From the UHGV virus genome UHGV-0365264: a stretch of DNA of 10,300 nucleotides; one strand, written 5' to 3'. Source of the stretch: a virus. Below the pieces are notes generated by a model. The model did no database searches. It saw nothing but the letters and a program-made list of their open reading frames with translations, and had not been told where the DNA came from. Position numbers and translations under genes: made by a program. Positions 1 through 10,300 of this stretch are shown in pieces; within the stretch, counting starts at the first letter, position 1; each line of letters begins with the position of its first letter.

Positions 1-285
1 TAGTGGTTTACCGCTGGCGCTTTTACCCTGTCCCTGCCGGATGAATAACAGATTGCCATTTTTCACCGACGCAATAGCACCGTACTGGCGCGCCAGCCGC
101 ATCAGAAAACTGCCGTCACTCTCATTGGTCTGGTCTATATGTTCCACGGGTTTATCTGACAGGTCTTTACCCAATGCCATCTTCAGTTTGTGCCGCACAG
201 CTATTTCCTTCACCACTTTCCCGACGGTGGTCTTGTGCCACGACTTTTCACGGCGGGTACAGTAGCTGCACGACTCACCATCGCT
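1..285 (-). pseudogene. D: Fragment of P2 gpD-like tail protein (late control gene D family); N-terminal part missing, C-terminal part continues beyond window start
   Basis: Minus-strand translation reads ...RREKSWHKTTVGKVVKEIAVRHKLKMALGKDLSDKPVEHIDQTNESDGSFLMRLARQYGAIASVKNGNLLFIRQGQGKSASGKPL, which matches the central region of P2 gpD as I recall it (RREESWH...HIDQSQESD..FL.RLA...SVK.G.LLF.R.GQG..ASGK). An in-frame TGA at 286-288 lies 9 codons upstream of the first matching residues, and no gpD N-terminal sequence is seen in any frame. Confidence 0.5.
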
Positions 286-563
286 TCACCGCCTTTTGCG
301 GGAAGCGCCAAAGGATGCAACGGTGGAAGCTCTGCTGGCGCGGCAGCAACCCCCATCATTCCGGCGACAACGGCAGCCAGTGCAGCTGTATTTCTCCGGC
401 TGGTCACGTTTGCCGGGCCGTTAACAATTTCCGGCCCGTTTTCACCGACGATGCCAAACTGCCCGCGCGGGATATAGCCGCCGCTGTCATACATCCCCGC
501 AAAGCCATATCCCCATGACGGAAAATCACCCGATGGCATCATCACTTTACCGTCTGCATTCAT
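210..563 (-). pseudogene. Tail tape measure protein C-terminal fragment (gpT-like remnant)
   Basis: Frame open from 615 to the TGA at 210-212. It contains GYGFAGMYDSGGYIPRGQFGIVGENGPEIVNGPANVTS, a Gly-rich segment with a VGE.GPE-type motif typical of tape measure C-termini. Only about 100 aa are present, overlapping the 3' end of the M-like ORF and the 5' edge of the gpD-like fragment in other frames. Confidence 0.4.
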
Positions 564-954
564 CCGCCATTTCTTCCGCCAGAACGGTCTGCACGTTACG
601 GTTGCCCAGCGGCATCACCCAGCCATGGCGCAGCGCATGACGCCCGATTTCCAGCGCACCGGCATAATCACCGGCGTCGATACGCCACAGCATCACGTAC
701 ATCAGCACGTCATCCTGCTGCGCACCTCCGGCAGCCAGCACGCCCTCCGCCCAGGCGGCATACTTCGGCAGAAGCTCCACCTTGATTGCCGCCTTTTTCA
801 CGGTGGACTGGATACCCTTAAGGCGGCGGCGGTCTTCTGCCAGCTGCAGCAGCATCAGGTCATAGCCGGACGCATGGCGAACACTGCCGCCCTCCCGGGC
901 GGCCTGTTCGGCCTGAATGCGCAGGCGGTGCTGCCGTGCGGGACTCAGGCTCAT
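547..954 (-). CDS. M: Terminase small (endonuclease) subunit, gpM-like; apparently C-terminally truncated (135 aa versus about 247 aa in P2)
   Basis: Position immediately downstream of the capsid gene in O-N-M order. Start is preceded by GAGGAG with a 6-nt spacer. N-terminal region is Arg/Ala-rich like the gpM family. ORF ends at TAA 547-549, where tape-measure-like sequence begins in another frame. Confidence 0.65.
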   Translation of the reverse strand: MSLSPARQHRLRIQAEQAAREGGSVRHASGYDLMLLQLAEDRRRLKGIQSTVKKAAIKVELLPKYAAWAEGVLAAGGAQQDDVLMYVMLWRIDAGDYAGALEIGRHALRHGWVMPLGNRNVQTVLAEEMADECRR

Positions 955-957
955 GCG

Positions 958-2052
958 TTACTCCTCAGTTTCTGTTTCGGCGGGTTCTTCCACAGGCGCA
1001 GACTGCACCGCAGCTGGCTCGCTGAAGTCACCGATAGTGATGTTTTCGACCAAGGCCGCGCAGCGGTAGTCTTCAATCACATACGCTTCGTTGACGGATT
1101 CGAAGTTCTCAATCCGGTCACGTTTCGGGTTGTCGATAACAGAACGGCGGCGGGTGTCCTCCTGCCAGTAGATGGACAGGTTATCCAGACGGGTGATCAG
1201 CAGGGCATTAGCCGGGAAGAACGGCGCACGCACCGCCTGCAGGCCGCCCATGCGTTTCTGGCTGATAATCAGATCGGCGGCGATTTTCTCGCTGTTTTCC
1301 TGCTCTTTGTTAACCAGCGGGAAATACTTATCGGACAGCAACTCGCGGCTGCAGATAACAACCAGCTCATCATCATCCTGATACACCACGTCGATCAGCT
1401 CGTTAACCGCATCCATCACCACGGCGTCCAGGTTGGTATAGTCGCCGCCCTTGCCCACCTTTACCGCGCCTGCGGTGGTGGTGCCGTCCTGGGTGGTGCT
1501 GCCCATAACGTGGTCCGGCGCGTCTTCGCGGATTTTCTGCAGCCAGCCCTTATTCACGTCCTGCAGCAGCGGGTTTTCTGCGCGGTTGGAGGTTTTGGCG
1601 CGCTTCACTCCGTTAAAGCCGATCATAATGCGGTCCAGCGCCTGGCGCTTGACAATGGCGTTACGGATACGCACCTGGAAGTCCTGAAATTTCGCCCACA
1701 GGTCCAGCTTTGCGTAGGTCAGCACCGTGTCAAAGTTGGTCTGTTCGCATTTATATTCCACGTCCTCCATCAGCATCGGATCGGTAGGTTCGCGCTCTTT
1801 GGTGGTGGTGTCGGTGGTTCCGGCAATGGTGGAGCCAACGCCCAGGCCAAGCAACTGGCCGGACTGTTCCGCAACCGGCGTGATGTTAATCAGCGTCAGA
1901 AAAGCGGCGGACTGCTGGATCTGGTCTTCCAGCGTCTGCTGCACGGACGGGTCCACGGTGAACTTGCTGGAAAGTTCTTCCACTTCCACGTTGTTCAGGC
2001 GTGCCAGCTGCTGCAGGTAGGCGTTAAAGGCAAAGCGGGTATTCTTTTTCAT
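958..2052 (-). CDS. N: Major capsid protein, P2 gpN family
   Basis: 364-aa ORF. N-terminus MKKNTRFAFNAYLQQLARLNN...KFTVDPSVQQTLE and internal KGGDYTNLDAVVMDA, VICSRELLSDKYFPLVNKEQENSEKIAADLIISQKRMG and LITRLDNLSIYWQ are colinear with P2 gpN as recalled. AGGAG lies upstream of the ATG. Confidence 0.93.
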   Translation of the reverse strand: MKKNTRFAFNAYLQQLARLNNVEVEELSSKFTVDPSVQQTLEDQIQQSAAFLTLINITPVAEQSGQLLGLGVGSTIAGTTDTTTKEREPTDPMLMEDVEYKCEQTNFDTVLTYAKLDLWAKFQDFQVRIRNAIVKRQALDRIMIGFNGVKRAKTSNRAENPLLQDVNKGWLQKIREDAPDHVMGSTTQDGTTTAGAVKVGKGGDYTNLDAVVMDAVNELIDVVYQDDDELVVICSRELLSDKYFPLVNKEQENSEKIAADLIISQKRMGGLQAVRAPFFPANALLITRLDNLSIYWQEDTRRRSVIDNPKRDRIENFESVNEAYVIEDYRCAALVENITIGDFSEPAAVQSAPVEEPAETETEE

Positions 2053-2068
2053 CGGGTTTTATGCTCCT

Positions 2069-2902
2069 TCAGCAATTGGTCAGGGTGCCTGCCGGTGCGT
2101 CACCGCCCGGCGCGCGCTGGCGGTAATCTTTACGACTGTCTTCACGGCTCAGCTGCTGGTGAAGCTCGGCAAAGGCGGCCTGCTGCTCCTGCAGCGAGGA
2201 TTCAAGCTCAGAAATGCGCGCGTCCTGGTCGGACAGGGATTTATCAGTGCGCTCGCTCAGGTTCTGCTGCTCGGTGGCGACCAGCTCAACGGCTTTGTGC
2301 ACGTCTGAGAAACGCGCATCATCGGTCTGCTCTTTTTTGGTGAACAGGGCGGTGACGCGGGCAAAGAGGGACGGCTTTTCGTCCTGGGTTTCTTCCAGTT
2401 CGATCAGCGTTTCTTCGGCGGCGGTAAACAGGTTTTCAGGACTCTGCTTGCGGTTTGCCAGCGGGTTGTGCGCGGCGCTGGCGCTGAAGGTCAGCATCTC
2501 AGTGCCCAGGCTCGCCGGATCGTCAGTGGCGGCCAGGCCCACAAGGTAGGCTTTGCCGGTGTCGGCAAACTTCGGGCTGACTTCCATGGAGGTGAAAAGC
2601 TTCTGGCCTTTCTTGACCAGTTCAACCAGTGCGCTGGTCGGCTCCACGTCGGCATACAGCGCCATCTTGCCCTTCAGGGGGCCATCCTGAATTTCTTCAG
2701 CAACCAGCGCCGTCACCCTGCCGTAGCGGTTGAAGGTGCTTTCCGGCAGATATGACTTGATGTGCTCAAGGTTAATCAGGGCGGTGTAGACCTCCGGGTT
2801 GTAGCTGGCCGCCATCTGCTCCAGCCATTCGCGCTGGATTTCGCGTCCGTCGGTGGTGGCACCTTCCACCCCAATGCGGAAACGCTTTGTTTTCACTGTC
2901 AT
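2069..2902 (-). CDS. O: Capsid scaffolding protein, P2 gpO family
   Basis: 277-aa ORF directly upstream of N on the same strand, with an acidic, coiled-coil-rich C-terminal half. GGAG lies 8 nt upstream of the ATG. Position is that of P2 O, transcribed divergently from P. Confidence 0.88.
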   Translation of the reverse strand: MTVKTKRFRIGVEGATTDGREIQREWLEQMAASYNPEVYTALINLEHIKSYLPESTFNRYGRVTALVAEEIQDGPLKGKMALYADVEPTSALVELVKKGQKLFTSMEVSPKFADTGKAYLVGLAATDDPASLGTEMLTFSASAAHNPLANRKQSPENLFTAAEETLIELEETQDEKPSLFARVTALFTKKEQTDDARFSDVHKAVELVATEQQNLSERTDKSLSDQDARISELESSLQEQQAAFAELHQQLSREDSRKDYRQRAPGGDAPAGTLTNC

Positions 2903-3041
2903 GCCGTGCTCCGTTAGAAATTACTTACTTGAGCCTTATGTTTGCGGTGATGGGGGAGTGAAACAACGCGCGGCGCTTGTACGGTCAGCCACACAAACCG
3001 CAGCCGGGGAAAGCCGCGGGGCAAGGCCGTATGTTTGGGCC
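2903..3041. promoter_or_regulatory. Divergent late promoter region between O and P, with a TGT-N12-ACA element (2978-2995) of the Ogr/Delta activator type
   Basis: 139-bp intergenic region between divergent O and P starts. tgtacggtcagccacaca at 2978-2995 fits TGT-N12-ACA. Its centre is about 85 bp upstream of the O start codon, compatible with a -55 activator site for leftward transcription. Confidence 0.35.
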
Positions 3042-4808
3042 ATGAACACGACAATGACCCCCGCAGACCTCGATCCCCGTCGGCAGGCCATGCTGCTGTA
3101 CTTTCAGGGATACCGCGTAGCCCGCATTGCAGAAATGCTGGGCGAGAAAGTTGCAACCGTTCACAGCTGGAAGAAGCGCGACAAGTGGGGCGAGTATGGG
3201 CCGCTGGATCAGATGCAGCTCACCACCGCCGCGCGCTACTGCCAGCTCATTATGAAGGAGCAGAAAGAAGGGAAAGACTTCAAGGAAATTGACCTGCTGG
3301 CGCGCCAGTCAGAGCGCCACGCCCGGATCGGTAAATTTAACGATGGCGGCAACGAGGCAGATTTAAATCCGAAGGTTGCCAACCGCAACAAAGGCCCGCG
3401 CCGCAAGCCCGAAAAGAACGTTTTTACCGACGAACAGATCGAGAAGCTGCAGGAGGTTTTCCACGGCTCGATGTTCGCCTACCAGCGCCACTGGTACGAG
3501 GCAGGCAACCGCCACCGTATCCGCAACTTGCTCAAATCGCGCCAGATCGGGGCGACCTTCTTTTTTGCCCGGGAGGCGCTGATTGACGCCATCACCACCG
3601 GCCGCAACCAGATTTTTCTTTCAGCCAGCAAGGCACAGGCGCACGTCTTCAAGCAGTACATCATCGACTTTGCAAAAGAGGTGGATGTGGAGCTGAAGGG
3701 CGACCCGATGACGCTCAGCAACGGCGCGTGCCTGTACTTCCTCGGCACCAACGCCCGCACGGCGCAGAGCTACCACGGCAACCTGTACCTGGATGAATAT
3801 TTCTGGATACCGAAATTCCAGGAGCTGCGCAAGGTGGCCTCCGGCATGGCCATTCACAAGAAATGGCGGCAGACCTACTTCTCCACGCCGTCCAGCCTGA
3901 CCCACAGCGCCTATCCGTTCTGGTCCGGCGCCCTGTTCAACCGGGGCCGCGCCAAAGCGGACAAGGTGGATATTGACCTGACCCACGGCAATCTGGCCCC
4001 GGGCCTGCTTTGCCCGGACGGCCAGTACCGCCAGATCGTCACCGTGGAGGATGCGGTGCGCGGCGGCTGTAACCTGTTCGATCTGGATCAGCTGCGGATG
4101 GAGTACAGCCCGGACGAATACCAGAACCTGCTGATGTGCGAATTCATTGACGATCTGGCGTCAGTGTTCCCGCTGAGCGAGCTGCAGGCGTGCATGGTGG
4201 ACAGCTGGGAAGTCTGGTCAGATTTTCAGGCGCTGGCGCTGCGCCCGTTTGGCTGGCGTGAAGTCTGGATCGGCTATGACCCGGCGAAAGGTACGCAGAA
4301 CGGCGACAGCGCCGGATGCGTGGTGGTGGCACCACCCACAGTGCCGGGCGGCAAGTTCCGCATTCTGGAGCGGCACCAGTGGCGCGGGATGGACTTCCGC
4401 GCCCAGGCTGACGCCATTAAAAAGCTGACCCAGCAATATAACGTGACCTATATCGGCATCGACTCGACCGGCGTCGGCCACGGCGTCTATGAGAACGTTA
4501 AGGCGTTCTTCCCTGCCGTGCGCGAATTCGTTTACAACCCCAACGTTAAAAACGCCCTGGTGCTCAAGGCATACGACATTATCAGCCACCGGCGCCTGGA
4601 GTTTGACGCCGGGCACACCGACATTGCGCAGTCCTTTATGGCAATCCGCCGCACCACTACCGCCAGCGGCAACCGCCCCACCTACGAAGCCAGCCGCAGC
4701 GAAGAAGCCAGCCATGCAGATCTGGCCTGGGCAACGATGCACGCACTGTTTAACGAACCGCTGCAGGGCGAAGCCGCCAATACCAGCAACATTGTGGAGA
4801 TTTTTTGA
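3042..4808 (+). CDS. P: Terminase large (ATPase) subunit, P2 gpP family
   Basis: Long ORF whose N-terminus MNTTMTPADLDPRRQAMLLYFQGYRVARIAEMLGE is gpP-like. It has Walker-type and nuclease-like segments and is the first gene of a P-Q operon as in P2. Start chosen at ATG 3042 rather than the upstream in-frame ATG 2853, which would overlap O; no strong SD, so the start is uncertain. Confidence 0.88.
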   Translation: MNTTMTPADLDPRRQAMLLYFQGYRVARIAEMLGEKVATVHSWKKRDKWGEYGPLDQMQLTTAARYCQLIMKEQKEGKDFKEIDLLARQSERHARIGKFNDGGNEADLNPKVANRNKGPRRKPEKNVFTDEQIEKLQEVFHGSMFAYQRHWYEAGNRHRIRNLLKSRQIGATFFFAREALIDAITTGRNQIFLSASKAQAHVFKQYIIDFAKEVDVELKGDPMTLSNGACLYFLGTNARTAQSYHGNLYLDEYFWIPKFQELRKVASGMAIHKKWRQTYFSTPSSLTHSAYPFWSGALFNRGRAKADKVDIDLTHGNLAPGLLCPDGQYRQIVTVEDAVRGGCNLFDLDQLRMEYSPDEYQNLLMCEFIDDLASVFPLSELQACMVDSWEVWSDFQALALRPFGWREVWIGYDPAKGTQNGDSAGCVVVAPPTVPGGKFRILERHQWRGMDFRAQADAIKKLTQQYNVTYIGIDSTGVGHGVYENVKAFFPAVREFVYNPNVKNALVLKAYDIISHRRLEFDAGHTDIAQSFMAIRRTTTASGNRPTYEASRSEEASHADLAWATMHALFNEPLQGEAANTSNIVEIF

Positions 4809-5833
4809 TGGGCAAGAGGAATAAAAACCGCGCTGCAGCTAAACAGAACGTTCAACAGAGCAGCGGCATATCTGCAGAAGCATTCAGCTTTGGCGACCCG
4901 ATCCCGGTACTGGACCGCCGGGAATTGCTGGATTATGTGGAGTGCGTGCAGATGGACCGCTGGTATGAGCCGCCGGTGAGTTTTGACGGGCTGGCGCGCA
5001 CCTACCGCGCCGCCGTGCATCACAGCTCACCGATTGCCGTTAAGCGTGACATTCTCAGCAGCACCTATATCCCGCACCGCCTGCTCAGCCAGCAGGCTTT
5101 TTCCCGTTTCGTTCAGGACTATCTGGTATTCGGCAATGCCTACCTTGAGAAACGCACCAACCGGCTCGGTGGCGTTCTCTCGCTGGAGCCCGCCCTGGCG
5201 AAATATACCCGCCGCGGCGTTGACCTGGACACTTACTGGTTTGTGCAGTACGGATTCACCACGCAGCCCTACGAATTCACGCCGGGAAGCATTTTCCATC
5301 TTCTTGAACCTGATATTAACCAGGAAATATACGGGCTGCCCGGCTACCTCTCAGCCATTCCGTCCGCGCTGCTCAACGAGTCCGCCACGCTGTTTCGCCG
5401 CAAATATTATATTAACGGCAGCCATGCGGGCTTTATCATGTACATGACCGACGCCGCGCAGAACCAGGAGGACGTAAACAACATCCGCCAGGCCATGAAA
5501 AGCGCCAAGGGCCCGGGCAACTTCCGCAACCTGTTCATGTACTCTCCCAACGGCAAAAAAGACGGGATCCAGATCATCCCGCTGTCAGAGGTGGCGGCGA
5601 AAGATGAATTTCTGAATATCAAGAATGTGAGCCGCGATGACATGATGGCTGCGCACCGCGTACCGCCGCAGATGATGGGGATTATGCCAAATAATGTCGG
5701 GGGTTTTGGGGATGTAGAAAAAGCGAGTAAAGTTTTTGTTCGAAATGAGCTCTATCCATTGCAGAAAAAACTAAGAGAGCTTAACACTTGGCTTGGAGAA
5801 GAAATCATTAAGTTTGACGAATACATTTTATAA
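4808..5833 (+). CDS. Q: Portal protein, P2 gpQ family
   Basis: N-terminus MGKRNKNRAAAKQNVQQSSGISAEAFSFGDPIPVLDRRELLDYVEC and later segments (FHLLEPDINQEIYGLPGYLSA, ATLFRRKYYINGSHAGFIMY, IIPLSEVAAKDEF, KVFVRNELYPLQ) are colinear with P2 gpQ as recalled. ATG 4808 overlaps the P stop TGA 4806-4808. Confidence 0.9.
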   Translation: MGKRNKNRAAAKQNVQQSSGISAEAFSFGDPIPVLDRRELLDYVECVQMDRWYEPPVSFDGLARTYRAAVHHSSPIAVKRDILSSTYIPHRLLSQQAFSRFVQDYLVFGNAYLEKRTNRLGGVLSLEPALAKYTRRGVDLDTYWFVQYGFTTQPYEFTPGSIFHLLEPDINQEIYGLPGYLSAIPSALLNESATLFRRKYYINGSHAGFIMYMTDAAQNQEDVNNIRQAMKSAKGPGNFRNLFMYSPNGKKDGIQIIPLSEVAAKDEFLNIKNVSRDDMMAAHRVPPQMMGIMPNNVGGFGDVEKASKVFVRNELYPLQKKLRELNTWLGEEIIKFDEYIL

Positions 5834-5839
5834 AAGAAT

Positions 5840-5863
5840 AGGCCGCAGAAAGCGGCCTTTATT
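5840..5863. terminator. Bidirectional rho-independent terminator between convergent Q and the 454-aa cargo gene
   Basis: aggccgc-agaaa-gcggcct stem-loop followed by TTTATT on the plus strand and a T-rich tract on the minus strand. It lies between the Q stop (5833) and the cargo gene stop (5878). Confidence 0.55.
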
Positions 5864-5877
5864 ATTCCCCAAAAGTA

Positions 5878-7242
5878 TTATTCTTCTTCATCATGTACAA
5901 CTTTTTTTTCGGGAATATCTTCATTTATCTTCTTCGTTCTTGTCAGTCCCGCCTTTCCCAGAACAGCATCCATTTTATCACCACCTTTTTCCACCAAACT
6001 TTTGAAACCATCAGAGGATAACATTTCCATTATTGGAGATGAATGAGCGGTTTCCTCAACGAATCTCAACGGTGGCTCTTCAAGTCGAGTAAGTGCATTG
6101 CCAAAAAGACGCTGTGAGAAATCAGAGTCTAATTGCATCGCTTCTCTACGATAACCTTCATAGGCTTTAGAAACGCTAGCTTTGAATTCATAATCTTCGG
6201 CCAATCTGAATCGTTGACCAATTTGCTTAGTAGCTAACCAAGCAAACCAAAGCGGGGCACCTACACTGAGAATCGATAAGATAAGCTGTATGGTTAGTTT
6301 GATACCAGAGGCATTAGGATTCGATAAGTATGCCTCCAGAGCATGCAATCGAGTATAACCAACAACGGCTCCAGCCCCAAGGGCTGCGATTAAGCCTGCT
6401 ACCCATAGCCTGATACTGGCGTTAAGTTTTCTTGCTTTATCTTCAAAAGCTCCAGCTAAACCTTTAGATGTCGTTGTTCTAAAGGCCTCCTCACATTTAT
6501 CGATATATCCTTGAGCTTCAACCTTAAGTTCAGCCAAATAATCGTTAGCTTCTTTCGCTACATTTTTATGTAATTGTGCAATCGTATTTTTTATGTCATT
6601 TAACTCTTTACCATCAAGCTTTGCCTGTTCTAATCTTTCATTGATTGAATCAGCATTTTTCTCTGAAAGTTCATTTAATTGATTAATTTCCTCATTTGTC
6701 TCCCTAAGAGATTTTAAGGTTGTGGGTAAACTCTCTGCAGCATCATAAGCTTCATTGATTACATTTATCTTGCTATCGAGGTCACCACTTTTCTCCTCAA
6801 TAGTTTGAAGATTAGATTGATACAAACCTAGTCTGTTTATTATTTTTTTTGGAAGAAGTTCTTTGTTATTTAAAACTTCAAACGAAAATAGCTCATTTAT
6901 TTCCGTACTTATATAAAGCATAGAAACAAAATACGATGCAATGGCTGGCCCCGATACATTAGTATTGCTGTGGTTTAAATGGTTTAAATTGGGTTGTGCT
7001 TTATCTAACGAATAAATTATAGAATCTATAATTTCAACGTCATGTTCAGAAGGTTCAAACTTAGTCATCTTGCCTATCTTTTCAGATAGCATTTTCGGGA
7101 AAGATACTAAATCTTCTGAATGTAAGAAGGGATATTGATAATTGTTAACATCAATAAAATCTTGCTGTGGAAAACTTATTGCACTAATAGTGGTATGTAA
7201 ATTATCCAGTTTTTCTTTTAGTTGGTTCAACTTTTCATTCAT
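5878..7242 (-). CDS. Hypothetical cargo protein, 454 aa: coiled-coil N-terminal and central region, two predicted transmembrane helices, about 100-aa acidic C-terminal tail
   Basis: Long ORF in markedly AT-rich DNA. The two hydrophobic helices are LWVAGLIAALGAGAVVGY and IKLTIQLILSILSVGAPLWFAWLA. Heptad-like Lys/Glu/Leu/Asn-rich stretches precede them. A possible promoter (TTGTAA, 18-nt spacer, TACAGT) lies upstream. Confidence 0.7.
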   Translation of the reverse strand: MNEKLNQLKEKLDNLHTTISAISFPQQDFIDVNNYQYPFLHSEDLVSFPKMLSEKIGKMTKFEPSEHDVEIIDSIIYSLDKAQPNLNHLNHSNTNVSGPAIASYFVSMLYISTEINELFSFEVLNNKELLPKKIINRLGLYQSNLQTIEEKSGDLDSKINVINEAYDAAESLPTTLKSLRETNEEINQLNELSEKNADSINERLEQAKLDGKELNDIKNTIAQLHKNVAKEANDYLAELKVEAQGYIDKCEEAFRTTTSKGLAGAFEDKARKLNASIRLWVAGLIAALGAGAVVGYTRLHALEAYLSNPNASGIKLTIQLILSILSVGAPLWFAWLATKQIGQRFRLAEDYEFKASVSKAYEGYRREAMQLDSDFSQRLFGNALTRLEEPPLRFVEETAHSSPIMEMLSSDGFKSLVEKGGDKMDAVLGKAGLTRTKKINEDIPEKKVVHDEEE

Positions 7243-7325
7243 GGCTTCGCCTTTGATTACTGTATGTAAAAGATAAACGTCCTTACAATATCACACTCAT
7301 GACAACTATCAGAGGGTAAGCGCGC

Positions 7326-7347
7326 GCTCGTATCCCCGCCACGCCTG
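7326..7347 (-). other. Candidate cos (cohesive end) site, P2-like
   Basis: The reverse complement of 7327-7345 is GGCGTGGCGGGGATACGAG, matching the recalled P2/P4 cohesive end GGCGAGGCGGGGAAAGCAC at 14 of 19 positions. It sits in a GC-rich island inside AT-rich cargo, in the A-to-Q interval where P2 cos lies. Confidence 0.3.
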
Positions 7348-7394
7348 CCCGCTTTATGTAGTGGTTTTCATGCAGGTGCATGATCTACGCAAAA

Positions 7395-7414
7395 GCCCGC
7401 CAGTTCTGGCGGGC
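7395..7414 (-). terminator. GC-rich hairpin followed by a T-run on the minus strand (terminator-like)
   Basis: gcccgcca-gttc-tggcgggc stem-loop. On the minus strand it is followed by TTTTGCG. Confidence 0.4.
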
Positions 7415-7687
7415 CTTAGCAAAAACGATCCTCAAACGATCATGCAATCTCATGCAGCATAGACATGCACAGACGAGTAAAGCGAATCGGACCTTACGCA
7501 AGGTGAACTCCTCAGCGGGCATAATCAGTATGTCGGAAGATCTCTAAAAATAAATAATTCGGTTAACAGGTATGCTTACAAAAGCATATATTTGATTAAA
7601 AATCATGTAAGGGGGAGGATCTCAAACTGAATCGCCACGGGTTTTACAAATTTCGATAGTCTCTCTAACGTTTCGGCTGAGGTCAAA

Positions 7688-8113
7688 ATGAAAAGCTTTT
7701 ACGTATTAATTTTAATTCTGGTTGCAAGCTTTGTTAGCGTCCCAGTTCAGGCGGTAACAGCTAAAAACTATGAGAAAGGAACTAAAGCTCAACAGAAATC
7801 AATATCTTACCTTTCATGTGCATTCTATGGCAGTAGCACACAATTAGATCCTAGCTACACGGAGCAAGTACCTACAGCCGATATCAAGATATTACAGAAA
7901 GCAGCTTACCACGCTTACAACGATGCGCTCTCATACTTTGGCTATGAGGAACCAGATCACGAACAACGCATAATTGATTATGCTGAATTTGTGGCGTCGC
8001 AAGAAGCTGTGTTATGGGATAAGCCGGGAATGAATGGAAAGCAGGTAACACTAATTGCTCGTTCTCTCTACAATGAGAGTAACTGTAACTTGTTACTGGA
8101 CTCAATTAAGTAG
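7688..8113 (+). CDS. Hypothetical secreted or periplasmic protein, 141 aa, with N-terminal signal peptide
   Basis: MKSFYVLILILVASFVSVPVQA|VTA has the n-h-c organisation of a signal peptide with an AxA-type cleavage site. GAGG lies 7 nt upstream of the ATG. AT-rich codon usage like the neighbouring cargo gene. Two Cys in the mature part. Confidence 0.7.
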   Translation: MKSFYVLILILVASFVSVPVQAVTAKNYEKGTKAQQKSISYLSCAFYGSSTQLDPSYTEQVPTADIKILQKAAYHAYNDALSYFGYEEPDHEQRIIDYAEFVASQEAVLWDKPGMNGKQVTLIARSLYNESNCNLLLDSIK

Positions 8114-8272
8114 GAAAAAGATGGTATTTTGCCCGTAGTTTCAACCTTAATCTCCGAACCTGTCGCAGAACGGGCGTTCACTCATCAAATAAACGCCACA
8201 CCTAACGCCTCACTGTACTCGTTGTTCAACCTTGCTGACGCCAGAACCAAGTTCAGACGCCAGCAACTTTTC

Positions 8273-8506
8273 TTAATGCAGCCAGCTGTCGTCTTCCCAC
8301 ACCTTCTGCATAATCTTCATCACTTGTTTTCTTTCTTCGTCCAGTTGCAGTCCGGTCAGTTCCACACCGTTAGAGCTACCTTTGCGGATGCGAATTACCA
8401 TTTTGGGATACAGGGGGCGCAGATTGCGGTAAAGCTCGGATTCAAGGGCGTCCAGGGTAGACTGGCTAATCTTCTGCTCTTTATCGATCATTATTTCAAT
8501 GCGCAT
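8273..8506 (-). CDS. DinI-family protein (DNA-damage-inducible protein I-like; possible Tum C-terminal-type module)
   Basis: MRIEIMIDKEQKISQSTLDALESELYRNLRPLYPKMVIRIRKGSSNGVELTGLQLDEERKQVMKIMQKVWEDDSWLH aligns along its length with E. coli DinI as recalled (MRIEVTIAK...ALAGELSRR...QETWESADDW). GAGGTG RBS upstream. Start taken at internal ATG 8504-8506 rather than the track start at 8578. Confidence 0.8.
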   Translation of the reverse strand: MRIEIMIDKEQKISQSTLDALESELYRNLRPLYPKMVIRIRKGSSNGVELTGLQLDEERKQVMKIMQKVWEDDSWLH

Positions 8507-8516
8507 AAAGGTCACC

Positions 8517-8705
8517 TCAGCTGATGACATCCATTGAGCGGTTGTATTCGTGGGTTCTGATTTTTGCCATGAGTTCATCAGTCAATTCAGAAACCCACTG
8601 CAGAGCCAGCCCCTTCTCTTCATCACTACACTCACTAGCCGCTACAAGCTTAAGAAAAAAATCAATGCGCTGGAGCTTCAAAGACTCCAAAAAATAGTCC
8701 TGCAT
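8517..8705 (-). CDS. Small hypothetical protein (62 aa), first gene of the LexA-box operon; possible antirepressor (Tum N-terminal-like) module
   Basis: AGGAGG lies 5 nt upstream of the ATG. Its TGA stop overlaps the RBS of the DinI-like gene, suggesting translational coupling. Sits immediately downstream of the LexA box. Confidence 0.6.
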   Translation of the reverse strand: MQDYFLESLKLQRIDFFLKLVAASECSDEEKGLALQWVSELTDELMAKIRTHEYNRSMDVIS

Positions 8706-8745
8706 CTTTCCTCCTATGACACCAAAGTAATACTGTATATATAAC

Positions 8746-8765
8746 CACTGTTTATATTTACAGTA
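8746..8765 (-). promoter_or_regulatory. LexA (SOS) box, with a second degenerate box overlapping at 8733-8748, in the promoter of the minus-strand operon
   Basis: cACTGTttatatttACAGTA is a perfect CTGT-N8-ACAG core with consensus-like flanks. The adjacent tACTGTatatataaCCAC has one good half-site. Candidate -35 TTTACA and a TA-rich -10 on the minus strand overlap or abut the boxes. Confidence 0.65.
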
Positions 8766-8857
8766 TATAATAATCTTACTGATGTAAAACGTTTTTTTAC
8801 GTTCATCAGCCTGATATGCCTGGTATTATTAAGAGCACGAATTGTTAACCCGCGTAA

Positions 8858-10300
8858 TTAATACAGGTTCCGCCACTTATCATCTTCCTGCAAACGCTGG
8901 TTCCGATAGAAGATACGCAGGCCTGCTCCTGACGGAATACTGCCGCCGCGAAGGAGTAAATCGACCTCTTTCTCGCTGCCATCAAATCCTCTGGACTTCA
9001 GTTCATAGACGAGCTGCTGTCGCTGATGGTCTGTAATTCGCTGTTTGTAGTCTTTACGCCGTTTCGGTTTCACCAGGCGTAACCTTGCAGCCAGTTCCCG
9101 GCGCTCTTTTTTGCTCATACTGTGCAAGTAATCGTGCAACTCCTTGTCATCCATGCGGGTAATGTCCGTTCTGGTGTCCCCATCAGCTGATTTATCTTTC
9201 TCCTGTTGGTTCAAATTTTCAGCAAGGGGACAGTTATTGCCACGAGTCCAAGGGGACAGTTATTGCCACGAGTCCAAGGGGCGCAAGCGCCCTGGTCGGC
9301 TGCCGCCTCCTGAACGTCAACGGCCTTACGAACCATTTTCCACTTCACTACATGAGTGCAGATCTTGCCCTCTGCAATGGGTGACCAGATGCCATAAATA
9401 CGAATACCGTGATCACCATAGGCGGTCGGCTCTTCGTTGATTTCATAAGCGGTTCTGATCAAGTGATATTTGCGGGGAACCAACACGCCGCCCTGCTTCA
9501 TAATGTAGGTGGCAAAACAGCCAGCATCAGCAGCAGCCAGAATGGCATCAAGACGCGGATCATCCAGTACCGGCGCACCTGCTTTTTTGTCACCCTGCTG
9601 CCTTGCCGCCTGACCAGCCAGCAATCGCAGTTCACGGTAAGCCTGACGCCCCGGAATGCCAAAGAAGCGGAATTGCTGAACACGATGCAGAGACGCCCAG
9701 GCATTAACGTATTCAGCGTTATCACGCAGGGATTTACCCGTTTCCTTGCTGATCTCGCCAGCCAGACCACGCCCGTCAATGTTCTTACTGATGTATTTCG
9801 CGATGTAGCTTGTCGGCGTTCCTTTGCGCGGGTTAATCAGCTCAGACTTAAAGCGTGGCCCCGTGTTATTGCCCAGTTCCTCGCGGTCTTCACGGATGGC
9901 AAACTTACGCAGTAATGCAGTGATGGCGCGGCGGTCTTTTTTACGCATGAAGCACATGAGATGCCAGTGCACAGTACCGTCATGATGCGGCTCAGCCACC
10001 CGCACGCCATACCACCGCAATCCGGCTTTGTGCATCGCCTTACGAAATGCAGCAAACATGCCGACCAGATAATCACTGCTTTGTCTTACCGTCGCATTTG
10101 TCCAGGTCGGGTTTGGTCTGCCGTTATTGAGCGTGGAATGGAAACGTGACGGACAGGTGATGGTGTAGAAAACGGCGCAGTCACCGCGCATTTCCGCGAT
10201 AAGCTCCAGACCTTTAACGCAGGCCATCATCTCATTGCGGCGATGTGCCGGGTTGCTGCTGCTGGCGTTTACCACATCTTCCATATCCAGCGTGTCTCCG
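8858..10300 (-). pseudogene. A: Rolling-circle replication initiator, P2 gpA family, split by a +26-bp tandem duplication; 5' end lies beyond the window
   Basis: All three RCR motifs are present: FYTITCP (motif 1), TVHWHLMCF (HUH) and SYIAKYISK (paired catalytic Tyr). The reading frame ends at TGA 9211-9213 just after the duplicated 26-mer. Removing one 26-bp copy joins this frame exactly to the downstream 118-codon ORF (8858-9214). Confidence 0.7.
9223..9281. repeat. Tandem direct repeat, 26 bp x 2 plus a 7-bp partial third copy
   Basis: caaggggacagttattgccacgagtc occurs at 9223-9248 and again identically at 9249-9274, followed by caagggg at 9275-9281. Confidence 0.95.

Follow-up and report, generated by a model that had tools for sequence, protein, structure and literature searches.

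A deletion-scarred and very probably decaying P2-like prophage of Escherichia coli

What kind of element keeps the genes for a phage head and for packaging DNA into it, when next to nothing is left of its genes for the tail? The question is raised by the stretch of DNA analysed here, 10,300 nucleotides of the virus genome UHGV-0365264 (hereafter, the window), at the left end of which pieces of three late genes follow one another. The original prediction, made from the sequence alone, took the element to be a decaying P2/186-like prophage or, more speculatively, a capsid-encoding element that depends on a helper for its tails. Our analysis speaks for the former. Namely, given the deletions that we could map, the homologies of the three truncated late genes (M', T' and D') and a lesion in the replication gene A, there is very little doubt in our minds that the window is part of a deletion-scarred, decaying (that is, cryptic) P2-like prophage of Escherichia coli, from the 186/Fels-2-like branch of Peduoviridae. 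In other words, it is an object of a known kind, a case of ordinary sporadic prophage decay and not a new type of element. None of the evidence gathered contradicts decay.

All 10.3 kb of the window belong to a 186/Fels-2-type P2-like prophage, reversed relative to the usual phage map; it covers the capsid-proximal half of the prophage and ends before the host flanks, the integrase and the immunity region. Intact P2-like relatives (the E2348/69 prophage, Fels-2, RE-2010 and 4LV2017) share the common order D-U-T...M-N-O / P-Q, cargo, cos-like block, DinI-like gene and A, and, depending on the segment, the DNA of the window is 85-100% identical to theirs. Compared with them, however, the window lacks 13.8-14.7 kb of the late region, and its gene A is frameshifted. 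The divergent Q-P / O-N-M cluster, with its P2-family capsid, GPO scaffold, portal and terminase genes, is present and collinear with 4LV2017 and Fels-2/RE-2010. In particular, four of its genes are of full length by profile matches and by comparison of lengths, namely those for the major capsid protein gpN (958..2052, minus strand; 364 aa; PF05125 positions 1-327 of 327, E = 2e-151), the capsid scaffold/protease gpO (2069..2902, minus strand; 277 aa; PF05929 positions 1-268 of 268, E = 2e-114), the large terminase (ATPase) gpP (3042..4808, plus strand; 588 aa; Terminase_5, 6N and 6C in metagenome loci) and the portal protein gpQ (4808..5833, plus strand; 341 aa; TIGR01540, E = 4e-103; PF04860). 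The gpP protein has the same length in E2348/69 and NCTC_13148, and one metagenome copy is 100% identical over the gene. We found no lesion in N-O-P-Q within the window, and the closest finished genome, NCTC_13148, differs from it at 1 position in 4.85 kb over these genes (99.96% identity). The reading of P, Q, O and N as apparently intact, next to a partial M, is hence borne out, and the four genes are most simply regarded as genes that decay has yet to reach. As a side observation, gpN carries a 12-residue acidic C-terminal extension (…PVEEPAETETEE), which brings it to 364 aa as against 352 aa in E2348/69, LH10-b-1 and 4LV2017; the gene is identical in NCTC_13148, acidic extension included.

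Is the small terminase gene, which had been said to stop after 135 codons, truncated or is it naturally short? The ORF (547..954, minus strand) does encode 135 aa, but positions 563-954 of the same strand are genuine gpM codons 1-131 of 216, and what follows codon 131 is four foreign codons and a stop, an out-of-frame reading of the T' sequence. Residues 1-131 are 95-96% identical to gpM of E2348/69, Salmonella phage RE-2010, Klebsiella phage 4LV2017 and LH10-b-1, the four homologues aligned, and the DNA of the M fragment is 94% identical to that of RE-2010. All three intact homologues in the alignment (E2348/69, RE-2010 and 4LV2017) have a gpM of 216 aa; what is more, the window's gpM' spans positions 1-99 of 130 in the PF05944 profile (E = 3e-33), whereas intact gpM spans positions 1-130. 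With intact homologues of 216 aa and a Pfam domain that breaks off at 99/130, M must be regarded as truncated, and a gpM of naturally about 135 aa in this lineage is ruled out.

Directly beyond M', the gpT' fragment (256..562, minus strand) represents residues 868-970 of the 1025 residues of the tape-measure protein, as identified by BLASTP, DNA identity and the PHROG tape-measure families. It is contained in ORF 210-563 (minus strand, 117 aa), which lies in a different frame from M' and in which 102 of 103 residues are identical to E2348/69 gpT residues 868-970 (BLASTP, E = 2e-69); at the DNA level, the piece is 95.5-99.7% identical to the T genes of phage 4LV2017 and E. coli prophages. This is the stretch of about 100 aa with tape-measure C-terminal character that had been noticed after M; more precisely, the last 55 gpT residues are absent, and the piece comes from near the C-terminus, not from the C-terminus itself. 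The ATG with which the ORF starts was made by the junction itself, the parental codon being GTG (Val868), and the ORF continues out of frame into D'. The gpD' fragment (tail/late control gene D; 1..259, minus strand), in turn, contributes residues ~116-201 within the window and continues beyond its left edge. Translated on the minus strand, positions 1-285 match E2348/69 gpD residues 113-201 of 366 with 85 of 89 residues identical (BLASTP, E = 3e-61), and D' matches positions 78-161 of the 305 in the PF05954 profile. The missing N-terminus of the gpD-like fragment is also real: the first ~115 codons are absent, and so is a start codon at the proper place. Overall, the T and D fragments of the window show 99-100% identity to the prophages of E2348/69 and NCTC_13148, with 100% DNA identity to D in the latter, and these matches, which go well beyond what chance would give, exclude that ORFs 210-563 and 1-285 are unrelated to the tape-measure protein and gpD.

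The breakpoints between the three fragments were mapped, as the original prediction had proposed, by alignment to a complete relative; the references were one complete phage (4LV2017, locus L001) and three E. coli prophages, including that of E2348/69 (locus L008). The expectation had been of two or more internal deletions, one from M into T and one from T into D, with junctions near 545-565 and 255-290; both junctions could be located to the base, junction 1 (T|M) at 561..562 and junction 2 (D|T) at 256..259. Deletion 1 amounts to 12.8 kb relative to 4LV2017 and 13.75 kb relative to the E2348/69 prophage. Everything from M codon 132 through T codon 867 is gone, and M codon 131 now abuts T codon 868, the junction corresponding to positions 18163 and 30986 in 4LV2017 (18164-30985 removed) and to positions 21557 and 35307 in the E2348/69 locus. 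With it were lost the end of M, L, X, holin, endolysin, spanins, R, S, V and W, as well as J, I, H, G, FI, FII, E/E' and 85% of T. Deletion 2, of ~995 bp, took away T codons 971-1025, the whole of U and D codons 1 to ~115, and T codon 970 is now followed by D from about its codon 116. The expectation that there is no room for L or for the lysis, baseplate, fibre, sheath and tube genes and U agrees with the ORF table and the alignments, in which we found no sequence of these genes, or of X and E/E', in the window. A complete P2-like late region (L-X-lysis-R-S-V-W-J-I-H-G-FI-FII-E/E'-T-U-D), which a viable phage needs, is absent, and T codons 868-970 and D from about codon 116 are what remains of it. 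The element belongs to the P2-like lineage by descent, as a defective member that is no longer a working phage.

A base-by-base comparison of the product with both parental positions in the E2348/69 prophage revealed 2 bp (CA) of microhomology at junction 1 and ~1 bp of exact microhomology at junction 2, where a GGCGG motif lies close to both parental breakpoints. The short direct repeats that had been anticipated at the junctions come down to this 1-2 bp. A 12-bp near-repeat at 559-581, reported by TRF, was considered as a junction repeat and rejected, being intrinsic to M and present in intact relatives. Since the junctions share merely 1-2 bp with their parents, the comparison points to both of them being typical scars of illegitimate recombination. 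We would therefore picture the history of the locus as follows, on the understanding that it is a reconstruction. Two illegitimate recombination events, either separate or parts of one complex event, would have cut the late region, a loss of 12.8-13.75 kb fusing M codon 131 to T codon 868 and one of ~995 bp fusing T codon 970 to about D codon 116. Such microhomology-poor deletions, in removing lethal lysis and tail genes, may have been neutral or even favoured for the host. Later, a 26-bp duplication would have frameshifted gene A in the window copy. Among the loci compared, no intermediate with a single deletion was found.

The duplication just mentioned is a third inactivating lesion, which the original prediction had missed. 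The C-terminal part of the replication endonuclease gpA (PF05840) occupies positions 8858..10300 on the minus strand, with the gene leaving the window at its right edge, and it is interrupted at 9223..9281 by a 26-bp tandem duplication (CAAGGGGACAGTTATTGCCACGAGTC, 2.3 copies; TRF score 118, 100% matches), which shifts the frame and splits the gene into ORFs 9211-10284 and 8858-9214. The gpA orthologues in NCTC_13148 and in one metagenome contig (L004) are uninterrupted and 804 aa long, and in alignments with the NCTC_13148 locus (L002) and with two metagenome loci (L004 and L005), the duplication appears as a single 26-nt gap. Because it is absent from all three, it must be younger than both deletions; among the loci compared, it belongs to the window only. 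The window copy therefore lacks an intact gene for the gpA rolling-circle endonuclease. Due to the deletions in M, T and D and to the gpA frameshift, the element would be unable to replicate, to package its DNA, to lyse the cell or to build tails.

Between the portal gene and gene A, the window contains a 454-aa cargo gene (5878-7242, minus strand), a cos-like site (7327-7345, minus strand), a 141-aa gene (7688-8113, plus strand) and a 62-aa gene (8517-8705, minus strand), both taken from the ORF table, and a DinI-like gene (8273-8506, minus strand). A search with the P2 cos consensus, allowing up to 3 mismatches, gave no match in the window, and the cos-like site was then spotted by eye. Its sequence, GGCGTGGCGGGGATACGAG, agrees at 14 of 19 bases with the P2 cos sequence, and it lies in a conserved 150-bp block (7319-7468) that is 92.7% identical to 4LV2017 and is flanked by stretches that do not align with that phage. 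We consider it a probable cos site. Its position at 7327-7345 places the cargo slot between cos and Q, and in relatives the same slot holds DprA with a phosphoribosyltransferase, a retron, or DUF262 or DUF4062 genes. The N-terminal part of the 454-aa protein is a long coiled coil, and two membrane helices are predicted in the protein, which matches a phage family with no assigned function (phrog_34659; PHROG, E = 3e-86); Pfam and NCBIfam gave no family, and PADLOC gave weak coiled-coil-type matches only. It may be viewed as a candidate anti-phage gene of unassigned type.

How widespread is this arrangement? Four ENA metagenome contigs, assembled from different samples, code for exactly the same M' protein. 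In all of them N is followed by M' (135 aa), T' (117 aa), a D' of 231 aa that starts at an internal Met, and ogr, and one of the four is 100% identical to the window over positions 1-8977. On the metagenome contigs, D' reaches the normal D stop and ogr comes next (loci L004 and L005); the contigs end before the host flank. Since the same junctions are found in four independent metagenome assemblies, they are real and not artefacts. Outside of these, neither junction was found in any of 5,426 complete E. coli genomes, a 34-mer across the T|M junction was absent from GTDB representative genomes and from JGI metagenomes, and the exact M' and T' ORFs occurred nowhere else among 15 billion proteins. 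Judging from these searches, the allele appears to be rare and clonal.

In other E. coli strains, the prophage has been cut as well, and in different places. To look at such cases, we searched the complete E. coli genomes with a query that joined ogr-D-U to M'-N-O, and the targets were prophages with both ends within 2.45 kb, so that the survey is biased towards deletions retaining both ends of the late region. Approximately 12 of the 1,337 matching E. coli genomes bring ogr-D-U that close to M'-N-O. Seven deleted loci were inspected, and all of them lie at the ybjL site, which the intact E2348/69 prophage also adjoins. As in the window, internal deletions have brought ogr-D near the capsid genes, with a truncated M, N or O fused to a truncated sheath gene, T, U or D, and NCBI's pipeline annotates the remains as pseudogene fragments. 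The fusions are nonetheless all different: M|T in two versions, M|D, N|U, O|sheath, O|T and lysozyme|D-ogr spacer. In coordinates of the E2348/69 locus (T/D side first, capsid side second), they run from M codon 30 to T in NCTC_13148 (22001, 35609), from M codon 174 to T in LH10-b-1 (22886, 35178), from M to D in cM2a (20108, 35154), from N to U in UMNF18 (20985, 36662), from O to T in NCTC9041 (22001, 36834) and from lysozyme to the D-ogr spacer in E300010 (19804, 33622), while STEC308 combines O to sheath with sheath to U (endpoints not tabulated) and has, in addition, a frameshifted P. In other words, the endpoints are scattered over O, N, M and lysozyme on one side and over sheath, T, U and D on the other, and several of the deletions destroy the capsid genes N or O. 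The pair M131|T868 and T970|D116 belongs to the window and the four metagenome contigs only; the breakpoints of the seven relatives differ from it. Six junctions that were compared base by base with the parental sequences have 0-3 bp of microhomology. All deletions remove tail genes, and most remove lysis genes as well. According to published surveys, the genes that incomplete prophages lose preferentially are those for lysis, lysin, portal and terminase (PMC7744054). The pattern at the ybjL site reads as one of independent, essentially random internal deletions, and the P2-like prophage at this site has undergone at least eight of them, with microhomology-poor junctions.

Of these relatives, the NCTC_13148 prophage is the nearest to the window, with 99.96-100% identity in the flanks. 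The window retains M codons 31-131, which are absent from NCTC_13148, and NCTC_13148 retains T codons ~719-867 and 971-1025, U and the start of D, which are absent from the window. It is impossible to derive the window allele from the NCTC_13148 allele, or the reverse, by simple deletion; since each keeps sequence that the other lacks, the two are independent deletions in one lineage. Further lesions were seen in NCTC_13148, with an IS1 insertion in the portal gene Q and an integrase truncated at the start of a Mu-like prophage (Mor, gp16, DDE transposase); these are covered by positions 21903-22746 and 32181-33190 of locus L002. Together with the different M|T deletion, they show that the lineage to which the window's prophage belongs is decaying.

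Could the remnant nonetheless have been kept for a reason? One can imagine that the host has shed the lethal functions and retained the rest for the sake of the 454-aa cargo gene (5878-7242), of immunity or of both, with the capsid genes as passengers. The cargo in the Q-cos slot does vary between relatives, independent deletions of tail and lysis genes do recur at the ybjL site, and the presence of the allele in four samples implies that its lineage persists. However, the cargo has no match to a known defence family beyond the weak coiled-coil-type ones, and the recurrence of deletions comes from a survey biased towards cases that keep both ends of the late region. We regard host selection of this kind as possible, if somewhat doubtful; it should be stressed that it elaborates the explanation by decay and does not replace it.

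The speculation that the element depends on a helper fares far worse. According to it, the element would make heads from its own N, O, P and Q, and would obtain tails, lysis, M and L from a co-resident P2-like phage. It is true that the four genes are intact, that the cos-like site at 7327-7345 is retained and that ogr is kept in the metagenome copies; moreover, P2-like sequence is present in about one in four complete E. coli genomes, and potential helpers are therefore common. However, the small terminase breaks off within its conserved domain, deletion 1 has taken the head-completion/adaptor gene L, and the window copy has a frameshift in gpA. T' and D' persist as useless pieces, the allele, besides being rare, is clonal, and the sister deletions, whose endpoints differ, fail to spare the capsid genes. 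In addition, the remaining genome of ~19-20 kb would be expected to underfill a P2-size head made of unmodified N and O. The modules specific to capsid-forming satellites, the cfPICIs (PMC10085698), are absent too, which is best seen in a direct comparison. The cfPICIs (e.g. EcCIEDL933) are a separate satellite family, conserved across many species, with a PICI-type integrase-regulator-primase module and with complete terS, terL, portal, head-tail adaptor and connector genes (PMC10085698). The window resembles them on the surface only, in that capsid and packaging genes are present and tail and holin genes absent. Namely, where cfPICIs have complete small and large terminases, the window has an intact large terminase and a small one cut at residue 131 of 216. 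Where they have adaptor and connector genes, gpL of the window's relatives (head completion; adaptor Ad1 in 4LV2017) falls inside deletion 1, and no other candidate ORF is present. In place of an integrase-regulator (alpA/merR)-primase/replicase module, the replicon gene of the window is the phage gpA (PF05840), and the relatives carry P2-type CI, CII and integrase. Like cfPICIs, the window has neither a holin gene nor a complete tail gene, but because dead T and D fragments remain, this absence reflects recent loss and not design. Finally, the cfPICI architecture is conserved, while the window allele occurs in 4 ENA contigs and in 0 of 5,426 complete E. coli genomes. All in all, we consider a helper-dependent, capsid-making element highly improbable.

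A weaker form of dependence can be conceived, in which the Ogr-type activator of a helper would switch on O-N-M' and P-Q of the remnant, with M, L, tails and lysis likewise supplied by the helper, so that the remnant might occasionally be packaged via cos, or its capsid proteins might mix or interfere with those of the helper. Copies without the gpA frameshift, such as those in loci L004 and L005, would be the candidates for such a helper-responsive remnant, which, if true, would represent an early stage on the way from a P2-like phage to a capsid-encoding satellite. We think it very improbable as well. As for an assembly artefact or chimeric contig that joins non-adjacent pieces of prophage, P2-like prophages are repeated within genomes and may mislead short-read assemblers, but with the same junctions in the four assemblies, one of them identical over 8,977 bases, and with analogous deletions in finished E. 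coli chromosomes, this is scarcely credible.

The locus matters little beyond its correct annotation. Namely, M', T', D' and A' are best entered as pseudogene fragments that belong to a cryptic P2-like prophage; to call them three small ORFs, or the whole a satellite, would be wrong. The deletions at the ybjL site are of some, if modest, value as a ready natural series in which to study the disarming of prophages. The comparison also guards against mistaking such remnants for capsid-forming satellites in automated screens for elements with a capsid and without tail or holin genes.

Two minor observations concern the relatives. First, NCTC_13148 and NCTC9041 (L002 16973-17032 and L012 4280-4339, respectively) have an identical T-side breakpoint, …GCAGAGCACCTA|G, at position 22001 of the E2348/69 locus, joined to different partners (M codon 30 in the former and the end of O in the latter), both of which begin with TAG(C/T)CC. 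The probability that a pair would share this breakpoint by chance is roughly 1 in 3,000, so a coincidence is unlikely; a local hotspot is possible, as is a shared ancestor that was reshaped later. Second, in the E2348/69 prophage the baseplate/fibre segment V-W-J-I-H (L008 26483-31889) is inverted relative to the other late genes and adjoins a gene for a recombinase (invertase), and S is cut short; because of this inversion and truncation, even this 'intact' reference has to be regarded as rearranged.
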